Virus record (IMG/VR): IMGVR_UViG_2558860274_000001
Span: 1-42,135 of that record
Reading direction: 5' to 3' (one strand)
Length of the DNA stretch: 42,135 nt
DNA from: a virus
Taxonomy: Duplodnaviria > Heunggongvirae > Uroviricota > Caudoviricetes
Shown here: positions 28,672 through 30,528 of the stretch, one piece after another
How positions within the stretch are numbered: position 1 is the first letter of the stretch
How the letters are laid out: each line of letters opens with the position of its first letter
Program-made: the position numbers and the translations under genes
The notes under the pieces: model-generated
Seen by the model: only the letters and a program-made list of their open reading frames with translations
Databases searched by the model: none
What the model was told of the DNA's origin: nothing

Positions 28672-28692
28672 AAAAAACCCGCCGAAGCGGGT
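28672..28692 (-). terminator. Rho-independent terminator downstream of the two-gene cassette
   Basis: Minus strand ACCCGCTTCGGCGGGT followed by TTTTTTG. Confidence 0.6.
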
Positions 28693-28696
28693 ATAC

Positions 28697-29803
28697 TCAA
28701 ACAATCTGGAAAATATTTCTTGGATTTGTAATAGGTCTGTTGATGGAGAACAACTCACGAATTAAATCTTGGCTCAAGCCAGTTTTCATAAGAATTCTTA
28801 GCCAGGTTGCATCATCCAGCATTTCAACCGCCTCGGCCAGCATGCCGGGTTCTTCAGGGCGCAAAAGTTCATCACCAGGTTCAACTCTCGTATACCCTCT
28901 GGAATTAAGATGCATATAGCCAGTTCTTGCCTGTTCCTGGGTCAATAAGCCTAATGCGCTGGCTCGATAAATACACATTTTAAGGCTGATTTTCCATCTA
29001 AGTTTAAATTCAACCAGAGCATTCCAGTCGAATTGCTTACCTCGTATTCGAGGAAATTCTTTAATGAAAGATAACCTGGGAACTAATAAGGCGCTCGAAA
29101 AGTGATCGGCTTGTGATTCCGTAAGTTTATCACCTGTCGTTATGCCCTCATGCATTACTAAATGCCCTAATTCATGACCTAAATCAGAGCGAAATCTACA
29201 TATGCTTTTTTTAACATTGTTCCTGATGATAACAGGCCTGTTATTGTGAACAGTAAAAGCATCAACACGATCATCGACTCCCGTAACATGCGCAACGATT
29301 ACCCCTAAACTCTCCGCCAATTTAACCATTGATGATATAGGGCCAAGACCTAAATTCCAGGCACGGCGACAATCTTCTGCCACTCGCTCAATATCATTCG
29401 GAGTAAGTAATTCAGCCCCTGGGTGCTCCGGTATGTTAACGTCAGGAAATTCGATTTCACCTTCAACAGCAGAAATTATAATATTAAGAATCTCAGCCCT
29501 GGCCAATACACTATTAGTCAGCGTTTGAGTCCTGGACTTCTTACTCCGAAAATGGCAGACATCACTTTCCAGAGCGTATTTTCGTTCAGTAAAAAGAAAA
29601 CTGGACTTAATCATAAGCGCTGAAGATATTAACTCAAGACATTGCTCCGATGGCCTGCACCCCTTCTCCAGTTTGCTAACGAATTGCTTTGTCTTGCCAA
29701 TTTTTTCGGCTAACTCTTCACAAGAAAGCCCAACAGCCATTCTCGCTAGTTTGAGCTTATCACCCCGATACTCAGTGAAGTTATTCACCTGATGTTCCAT
29801 CAC
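28697..29803 (-). CDS. XRE-family HTH fused to ImmA/IrrE-type zinc metallopeptidase (HEXXH), with ~130-aa C-terminal extension
   Basis: 368 aa; N-terminal HTH (LKLARMAVGLSCEELAEKIGKTKQFVSKLE), HEXXH motif GHELGHLVMHE; overlaps upstream ORF by ~20 nt. Confidence 0.7.
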   Translation of the reverse strand: MMEHQVNNFTEYRGDKLKLARMAVGLSCEELAEKIGKTKQFVSKLEKGCRPSEQCLELISSALMIKSSFLFTERKYALESDVCHFRSKKSRTQTLTNSVLARAEILNIIISAVEGEIEFPDVNIPEHPGAELLTPNDIERVAEDCRRAWNLGLGPISSMVKLAESLGVIVAHVTGVDDRVDAFTVHNNRPVIIRNNVKKSICRFRSDLGHELGHLVMHEGITTGDKLTESQADHFSSALLVPRLSFIKEFPRIRGKQFDWNALVEFKLRWKISLKMCIYRASALGLLTQEQARTGYMHLNSRGYTRVEPGDELLRPEEPGMLAEAVEMLDDATWLRILMKTGLSQDLIRELFSINRPITNPRNIFQIV

Positions 29804-30431
29804 TGCTCACATCCAAATCTTTATCCTTCGTACGCCGACGAAGAGGCACCTTATTAATCTCCGCTTCGTCAGGGAGTGTGTTATAATCAAGAGGCATAAG
29901 CGGCATCGATGCTGTAGATTGATGAGAAACTATACTAATCTGAGCACCATAAGTATTAAATCCAACAAGAGCTACCTCCCAACGAGGCAGTGTGGACTCT
30001 AATTCACCATCGCCCTCTTCGGATAAAAAAGGCTCAGCTATGACTCGCCATGTAATATCTTGCTCAGCCTCAACATCACCAAACAATGAGAGCTGCTCAT
30101 ACTCTACTTTATTTCGACGCAGACGATGTTTCTTTTTGGGGTTATTAATGCAATCTTTGGTAAATTGTAGCGGAACTTTATTTAAAGCAACTACATAGTC
30201 CAACCCCTTGGAAATCATCTCAAGGCCAGGAATTGCATCTTCATTTTGAATAAGATGATTTCTGACCCAATCATAAGCCCTTACACCTTCAGACCAGTTG
30301 CTGTCTAATGCGTGCTTATGATAGTACAGCTGCTCAAGTACGTTAGCGATCTCCGCCAACAAGTGGCGAACATAGTTTTCAGCAAGATAAGGTTGAAATT
30401 CCCAACAAGGAGCTAACTGATTTTCATTCAT
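29781..30431 (-). CDS. Unrecognised 216-aa protein, first gene of the two-gene cassette
   Basis: ORF with acidic C-terminal tail; co-oriented and overlapping with the HTH-peptidase gene; weak RBS. Confidence 0.5.
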   Translation of the reverse strand: MNENQLAPCWEFQPYLAENYVRHLLAEIANVLEQLYYHKHALDSNWSEGVRAYDWVRNHLIQNEDAIPGLEMISKGLDYVVALNKVPLQFTKDCINNPKKKHRLRRNKVEYEQLSLFGDVEAEQDITWRVIAEPFLSEEGDGELESTLPRWEVALVGFNTYGAQISIVSHQSTASMPLMPLDYNTLPDEAEINKVPLRRRTKDKDLDVSSDGTSGE

Positions 30432-30466
30432 TTCAAGTTTCGCTTTTTTTAGAATTCGTAAACCAC

Positions 30467-30495
30467 ATATTTTCGCATTTTTCTATTTTTGTCAA
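30467..30495 (-). promoter_or_regulatory. Candidate sigma70 promoter for the two-gene cassette
   Basis: Minus strand TTGACA, 17-nt spacer, AAATAT, about 35 nt upstream of the ATG. Confidence 0.35.
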
Positions 30496-30506
30496 CCAGA
30501 CTAATG

Positions 30507-30528
30507 CAAAAACCCGCCGAAGCGGGTT
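30507..30528 (-). terminator. Rho-independent terminator downstream of hokD
   Basis: Minus strand AACCCGCTTCGGCGGGTT followed by TTTTGC; same hairpin core as at 28678. Confidence 0.6.

Follow-up and report, generated by a model that had tools for sequence, protein, structure and literature searches.

What is the two-gene cassette that separates hokD from a rem homologue in a lambdoid prophage, and what might it do? The prophage is recorded in IMG/VR as IMGVR_UViG_2558860274_000001, and the window, by which we mean the whole stretch of 42,135 nucleotides (nt) that was analysed, is a mosaic of tail, head, lysis, nin, replication, immunity, and integrase modules. As the initial annotation had described, the list of open reading frames (ORFs) contains two co-oriented, overlapping minus-strand ORFs at this place (Table 1), with hokD upstream (Pfam HOK_GEF, E 1e-23) and an ORF with 71% identity to K-12 Rem downstream. 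The comparisons presented here make it very probable that the cassette is RosmerTA (rmrT-rmrA), a toxin-antitoxin (TA) module for phage defence, and that it forms a promoter-plus-terminator moron within the prophage nin region.

Both cassette proteins are matched by PADLOC models of this system. The 216-amino-acid (aa) protein matched the RmrT model PDLC03929 with an E value of 4.6e-25, over residues 7-209 of the protein and positions 5-195 of the 198 in the profile. The 367-aa protein matched the RmrA model PDLC03943 (E 8e-105, 349 bits) over residues 12-351, and 13 further RmrA models matched it as well. In PHROGs, RmrT was assigned to phrog_5786 (E 8e-85; unknown function) and RmrA to phrog_2439. 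The first gene, which had been thought to match no family, is thus placed by both PADLOC and PHROGs; RmrT has no match in Pfam or NCBIfam, and no Pfam match was found for 61 members of its family either. The sequence-level features that define RosmerTA membership are an RmrA profile, an adjacent RmrT profile, a peptidase motif, and conserved pairing, and all of them were found here. Together with the conservation of the pair in distant relatives, the matches of both genes to RosmerTA models argue for the regulated toxin, abortive-infection or defence module that had been suggested for this locus.

RosmerTA is already a known kind of system (Millman 2022; PADLOC). It protects against phages, and its ΔrmrA mutant was not transformable (10.1101/2022.05.11.491447). 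The subtype found in the window is different from the verified E. coli one, that of strain OLC-716 (sequences from Table S2 of Millman). The two, both from E. coli, are alike in that a toxin gene is followed by the gene of a ~370-aa antitoxin with an XRE-type helix-turn-helix (HTH) and a zinc peptidase. Their RmrA proteins are homologous (29% identity, E 2e-35, ~300 residues aligned), whereas BLASTP and hhalign profile comparison revealed no relationship between their RmrT proteins, and the OLC-716 system falls under PDLC03935/PDLC03949, not PDLC03929/PDLC03943. Because the OLC-716 RmrT is unrelated and other PADLOC models apply to that system, the window system represents a catalogued but distinct Rosmer subtype.

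We then inspected RmrA. RefSeq (WP_000401168.1) starts the protein at ATG 29800, which gives 367 aa; an alternative GTG start at 29803, for which this ATG is the very next codon, gives 368 aa (28697..29803). The overlap with rmrT is 20 nt with the ATG start and 23 nt with the GTG start. The predicted fusion of an XRE HTH to a HEXXH peptidase was recovered in full, as HTH_3, Peptidase_M78, and the motif GHELGHLVMHE are all present, and the HTH region matches SinR and the 434 repressor in the PDB. In an alignment of eight RmrA proteins with 27-64% identity, the verified one included, residues H209, E210, H213, H217, E228, A231, F234, and P241 are invariant. The invariance of the HExxH…E residues therefore indicates that the peptidase is under selection. 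The NCBIfam model of the spr1629-family repressor/antitoxin also matched RmrA (E 3e-45), with a score of 155 bits that lies below the equivalog cut-off of 335. A separate observation concerns the linker between HTH and peptidase, where a CHFRS motif (residues 83-87, window 29539-29553) is conserved and its R85 is invariant in 8/8 RmrA proteins, again including the verified one; the motif may serve for autocleavage or as a pseudosubstrate.

The RmrT family and its pairing with RmrA were followed beyond E. coli. An exhaustive profile search of 1.8 billion representative proteins yielded 69 RmrT clusters, nearly all of about 200 aa, and every one of the 61 family members aligned matches PDLC03929. 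Named members come from Enterobacterales, Vibrio, Aeromonas, Photobacterium, Pseudovibrio, and Alphaproteobacteria. A related-locus search with an alignment of close RmrT sequences returned only E. albertii and Xenorhabdus species representatives. At all six distant loci examined, a gene of 367-383 aa with HTH and Peptidase_M78 domains lies directly 3' of the RmrT homologue, and the two genes overlap or are a few nt apart, in contexts that are otherwise unrelated: the nin region of a lambdoid prophage in Xenorhabdus, and elsewhere places, some of them resembling defence islands, beside RES, SNIPE/T5orf172, methyltransferase, kinase or metabolic genes. Searches of 50,697 phage records with RmrT (tblastn) and with the cassette (megablast) gave no match, and a literature search for the RefSeq accessions of the cassette proteins also found none.

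The boundaries of the cassette became clear by comparison with empty sites. In K-12 Qin and in one O103 prophage, hokD is followed by a single hairpin copy and then by rem. Relative to these sites, the window carries a discrete insert of 1835 base pairs, including a second hairpin copy, precisely at the hokD-rem site. With a GC content of about 0.42, the insert is poorer in GC than its flanks (0.50-0.55); these features support the autonomous moron that had been proposed. The 20-nt hairpin sequence AAAAACCCGCCGAAGCGGGT is repeated directly and without mismatch, at 28673-28692 and at 30508-30527, and its core 16-mer has two exact copies in the window where 0.02 would be expected by chance. A terminator scan scored both copies as minus-strand intrinsic terminators, in agreement with the earlier claim of the same terminator at both ends. 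In E. coli KL53, a variant cassette with 80% identity occupies another lambdoid nin region, one that lacks hokD, and has an upstream terminator of its own; its 3' terminator shares the stem ACCCGC/GCGGGT with the window cassette and differs in the loop. We infer that the cassette brings its own terminator and reached the hokD site via recombination between similar hairpins. A third hairpin copy with two mismatches (AACCGCCGAAGCGGTT) is found among the tail genes at window 13077-13092, where it adjoins the start (high-coordinate end) of a minus-strand ORF of 1081 aa (9815-13060).

Upstream of rmrT, the TTGACA-17-AAATAT element noted in the initial annotation is present. A consensus promoter scanner made no call at this site, because the −10 hexamer fits the consensus at only 3/6 positions. 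However, the block TTGACA-N12-TGCGAAAATAT is identical in the KL53 variant and in the Xenorhabdus cassette, whose RmrT is 53% identical, and the sequence around the block has diverged. This conservation is better support for a real promoter than the consensus fit, and the block perhaps includes an operator. The operator search itself found weak or partial repeats only: E. coli has GCGAAA boxes, and Xenorhabdus has AAATGCG-N14-CGCATTT. The E. coli boxes, AAAAATGCGAAAA and AAAAAAGCGAAAC, are two direct copies at window 30470-30482 and 30437-30449 on the minus strand, between the promoter and the rmrT start codon. The Xenorhabdus repeat (locus L004, about 4954-4982) is inverted and lies over the −10 element in place of the direct boxes. 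Such boxes near the rmrTA promoter are possible RmrA operators.

The cassette is widespread in E. coli. It is carried by 237 of 5426 complete genomes of diverse lineages, the therapeutic strain 83972 among them, with 224 records reaching at least 99% identity. The hokD or rem flank has matches in 4727 genomes, and the hokD-rem junctions sampled among them are mostly empty. RefSeq labels the two products only "hypothetical protein" and "helix-turn-helix domain-containing protein". Natural disruptions of the cassette were examined in two cases, and in both of them rmrT was hit and rmrA was intact: in FDAARGOS_1249 an IS5 insertion interrupts rmrT (locus L018, 1710-3269), and in PS1Thumoskin9 rmrT has an internal deletion (locus L017, 4858-5163). 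All 233 rmrA matches span at least 80% of the gene. Loss of rmrT only, in these two cases, fits the polarity of a toxin and its antitoxin.

By analogy with other Rosmer systems described in the literature, RmrT would very likely be a toxin that is neutralised by RmrA and is released on phage infection. RmrA would neutralise RmrT, and its HTH would probably repress the operon. Phage infection would lead to the release of RmrT, and growth arrest or abortive infection would be the outcome. The RmrA peptidase may act by cutting RmrT or the linker of its own HTH, or may serve as a sensor of a phage trigger. The host proteins ClpX and ClpP would probably help to restrain RmrT. In Pectobacteriaceae, rmrA and clpX are essential only in strains that carry Rosmer (PMC13566846); in E. 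coli E101, a prophage TA makes clpP essential (Rousset 2021); and in S. pneumoniae, restraint of the Rosmer toxin RipA (Spr1630) needs both RipB and ClpX (PMC12795458).

A toxin and its antitoxin on a prophage may also serve persistence of the prophage only, through post-segregational killing like that of hok/sok and with no anti-phage role. The cassette does adjoin another addiction-type module, hokD/sok; the first description of Rosmer-type pairs presented them simply as TA systems (PMC4671572), and pneumococcal RipAB has a non-defence role in competence (PMC12795458). Such a pure addiction or stabilisation function is nevertheless unlikely, since the family is catalogued as defence, two of its members protect against phages, and relatives of the cassette stand beside defence-type genes (RES, SNIPE/T5orf172, methyltransferases). 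Addiction and defence are, moreover, not mutually exclusive.

Whether the RosmerTA toxin of the window offers a hint of its target was considered from its predicted structure. An AlphaFold2 (AF2) model built on the 61-sequence alignment, with a mean predicted local distance difference test score (pLDDT) of 85.6 and a predicted template modelling score of 0.75, replaced a model from 13 close sequences that had a pLDDT of 62. It consists of two long helices and a six-stranded sheet, strands 3 and 4 of which are separated by a long excursion (residues 93-126). When the model was compared with PDB and BFVD by Foldseek, there was no match at E < 0.01, and the sequence profile of RmrT gave noise only against PDB. 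By composition, RmrT is acidic and soluble (isoelectric point 4.9, grand average of hydropathy −0.54). A membrane toxin was rejected, as RmrT has no transmembrane segment and its Kyte-Doolittle maximum is 0.84 over a 19-residue window.

The excursion has the sequence PKKKHRLRRNKVEYEQLSLFGD and forms a flexible loop of lower pLDDT, in which QLSLF occupies residues 113-117. The optimal pentapeptide for binding to the bacterial beta sliding clamp is QL[SD]LF, and its hexapeptide form is QLxLxL; the consensus is reportedly that of Dalrymple in 2001 and Wijffels in 2004. Residues 112-117 of RmrT, EQLSLF, make up a conserved island within the variable, flexible loop, and every member of the close RmrT subfamily has Q113, L116, F117, and G118, amid flanking residues that vary. 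Among 55 diverse RmrT members, a relaxed clamp-motif pattern was found at the aligned site in 37, and only 3 times in other parts of these proteins; when the sequences were shuffled, 5.9 of 55 showed the pattern, anywhere in the protein. Variants of the motif across the family include QLSLPL, which we take to be the Hda motif, QLSLDLF, and QLNLAF. The non-homologous RmrT of OLC-716 carries QLKLDL at residues 143-148, which fits QLxLxL with a chance expectation of 2.3%; this is only a hint that the same clamp strategy may operate there.

The conserved QLSLF loop, and the targeting of the pocket of DnaN, the beta sliding clamp, by RipA, are the reasons for proposing that RmrT blocks the clamp. 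RipA interacted with DnaN in a yeast two-hybrid assay, and it is suppressed by substitutions in the hydrophobic pocket of DnaN (PMC12795458). RmrT would insert its exposed QLSLF into the hydrophobic cleft of the clamp, and this block would stall the replication both of the host and of any phage that relies on its replisome. That the RmrT family kills by occupying the DnaN cleft with this loop is a tentative proposal, which we place somewhat below an even chance because the motif was recognised post hoc and a third of the members fit it poorly. The genetic demonstration that RipA targets the DnaN pocket is consistent with the canonical clamp motif in RmrT, and window RmrA matches the model of the family of the RipA partner Spr1629. 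RipAB differs from the window system in being chromosomal and competence-linked rather than a prophage moron, and in that the score of window RmrA lies far below the equivalog cut-off.

Alternatively, RmrT might be a nuclease toxin of the PD-(D/E)xK type that degrades DNA rather than a clamp binder. A canonical active site was looked for and rejected, as there is no D…(D/E)xK on strands 2 and 3, where the family consensus reads FVFxI / VPxRF; the conserved acidic residues of the family lie elsewhere. We regard a nuclease of this type as quite unlikely.

Several points weigh against the defence and clamp proposals. A literature search found no experiment on the Rosmer subtype of the window, and the verified system of OLC-716 uses an RmrT that is unrelated to that of the window. 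The −10 element of the candidate rmrTA promoter is weak, and the promoter is a prediction from sequence. The clamp motif was spotted post hoc, and about a third of the RmrT members have no good match to it; the conserved hydrophobic motif could instead be a structural element or a site that binds RmrA. Window RmrT was likened to RipA, Vmi480, and the E101 toxin by description, not by sequence, and a second search for RmrT homologues and a cluster look-up did not turn up Vmi480, E101_02645 or Spr1630. In the literature searched, a link between Rosmer and the sliding clamp appeared only in the RipAB study, in which no clamp-binding motif is reported (PMC12795458). The only other RmrT found to be characterised, that of Gordonia phage Kita, acts on the membrane (PMC10440598). 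The Kita toxin depolarises the membrane, and toxins of its type would be marked by a C-terminal transmembrane segment, which window RmrT lacks. Rosmer toxins are heterogeneous, and therefore a mechanism is not transferable from one family to another.

Other TA systems were compared with the RosmerTA cassette. The toxin of the type VI TA system SocAB of Caulobacter crescentus is restrained through ClpXP rather than by simple sequestration. It acts on the hydrophobic pocket of the beta clamp (as cited in PMC12795458), and this toxin, SocB, has no homology to RipA according to the authors of the RipAB study (PMC12795458). SocAB thus resembles the window cassette in logic only, by a clamp-directed toxin and a link to ClpXP, and it has no HTH-peptidase antitoxin. 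The pair vmi480/vmi470 of Vibrio mimicus is a TA pair of a toxin and an HTH-zinc-peptidase protein (PMC4671572). Like the window cassette, Vmi480/Vmi470 and E101_02645/02644 of E. coli E101 consist of a ~200-aa toxin with no known domain, followed by a ~362-aa antitoxin with HTH and zinc peptidase, on mobile elements; the toxin length of 198 aa in this comparison equals the length of the PDLC03929 profile, and the likeness is by description only. A broader proposal is that the PDLC03929 toxins are clamp poisons with a canonical motif (QLSLF and QLxLxL/F variants) on a flexible loop of a new fold, that this is a recurrent Rosmer strategy, and that RmrA and ClpXP control the toxin by proteolysis in a SocAB-like manner. 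It may hold, and we put it forward as a possibility that has roughly one chance in three.

The initial annotation had pointed to ImmR/ImmA of ICEBs1 and CapH/CapP of CBASS as parallels. They share with RmrA the XRE HTH and the M78 zinc peptidase, in the control of mobile elements or defence. The parallel goes no further than analogy, because HTH and peptidase are fused in one antitoxin here; in ImmR/ImmA and CapH/CapP they are two separate proteins whose output is derepression of other genes, whereas the window has a fused antitoxin with a dedicated toxin. An ImmR/ImmA-type two-protein switch was rejected as a candidate, as the HTH and M78 domains are in one ORF and the cassette has no separate small HTH gene. 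It is highly improbable that RmrA is a stress-sensing switch controlling induction or neighbouring genes with a non-toxic accessory 216-aa protein at its side, for which its domains and its low-scoring PADLOC hits to capP (52 bits) and capH (21 bits) might speak, given that HTH and peptidase are not a separate repressor and protease, that capP reaches 52 bits where the RmrA models reach 349, that the rmrT-rmrA pair travels together outside prophages, that the prophage has its own immunity region and the cassette is insulated by terminators, and that disrupted copies lose rmrT.

Table 1. Features of the rmrT-rmrA cassette, with positions in the window
Feature	Position	Strand	Remarks
rmrT	29781..30431	-	216 aa; Rosmer toxin candidate, PADLOC family PDLC03929
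rmrA	28697..29800	-	367 aa from ATG 29800; antitoxin/repressor candidate with XRE HTH, M78 zinc peptidase, and C-terminal region
Codons for Q113-L-S-L-F117 of RmrT	30081..30095	-	Candidate beta-sliding-clamp-binding motif
XRE-type HTH domain of RmrA	29615..29755	-	Pfam HTH_3, E 5e-07, residues 17-63 of the 368-aa translation
M78 (ImmA/IrrE-type) zinc peptidase of RmrA	28958..29275	-	Pfam PF06114 Peptidase_M78, E 6e-11, residues 177-282
HELGH codons of RmrA	29162-29176	-	Within the motif GHELGHLVMHE
Candidate sigma-70 promoter of rmrTA	30467..30495	-	TTGACA 30495-30490, 17-nt spacer, AAATAT 30472-30467
Conserved box TGCGAAAATAT	30477-30467	-	Part of the candidate rmrTA promoter
Upstream hairpin copy	30508..30528	-	Intrinsic terminator for hokD transcription; left edge of the insert; a single hairpin is also 3' of hokD in the K-12 and O103 empty sites
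Downstream hairpin copy	28673..28692	-	rmrTA terminator; right boundary of the insert

The surroundings of the cassette contain further modules. Upstream of it, a sok RNA (Rfam RF01794, 102 bits) accompanies hokD, so that a complete hok/sok type I TA locus (window 30750-30920 and 30597-30752, both on the minus strand) precedes the cassette directly. The hok/sok and Rosmer modules stand back to back, and the hok terminator is also the left boundary of the Rosmer insert. At the empty hokD-rem site of O103 WL1467 (locus L003, 4047-5541), a Ser/Thr kinase and a PP2C phosphatase form a pair on the other side of hokD, which is another moron-like accessory module in the hokD neighbourhood. In agreement with the initial annotation, relBE is missing from the position that it has in K-12, and a DUF551 gene is found in its place. 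On the other side, DUF968, RusA, and Q antiterminator genes follow the rem homologue. Downstream of the Q antiterminator gene (25678-26499), the window carries tRNA-Gly(tcc) and tRNA-Thr(tgt) at 25228-25381 on the minus strand; at the equivalent place the related 83972 prophage has two tRNA-Arg and one tRNA-Ile. In the Xenorhabdus sp. TCT-1 prophage (locus L004, 8449-10355), ParE/Phd and HicA/HicB pairs come right after a Q-like gene, and the region is dense in TA systems.

The cassette adds no new type of system, and hundreds of sequenced E. coli genomes already contain it with at least 99% identity. In about 4% of complete E. coli genomes, the generic RefSeq labels hide its predicted defence function from users of the standard annotation. 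Comparison of the exact empty and filled sites shows how, in lambdoid prophages, a defence moron is placed at a terminator hairpin within the nin region. The conserved QLSLF gives a concrete, testable hypothesis for the mode of action of an uncharacterised Rosmer toxin family, and would link the PDLC03929 family to RipA, the one Rosmer toxin whose cellular target (DnaN) is known. If this is true, clamp targeting, first seen genetically for RipA, would recur among Rosmer systems as an effector strategy that can be recognised by its sequence signature.

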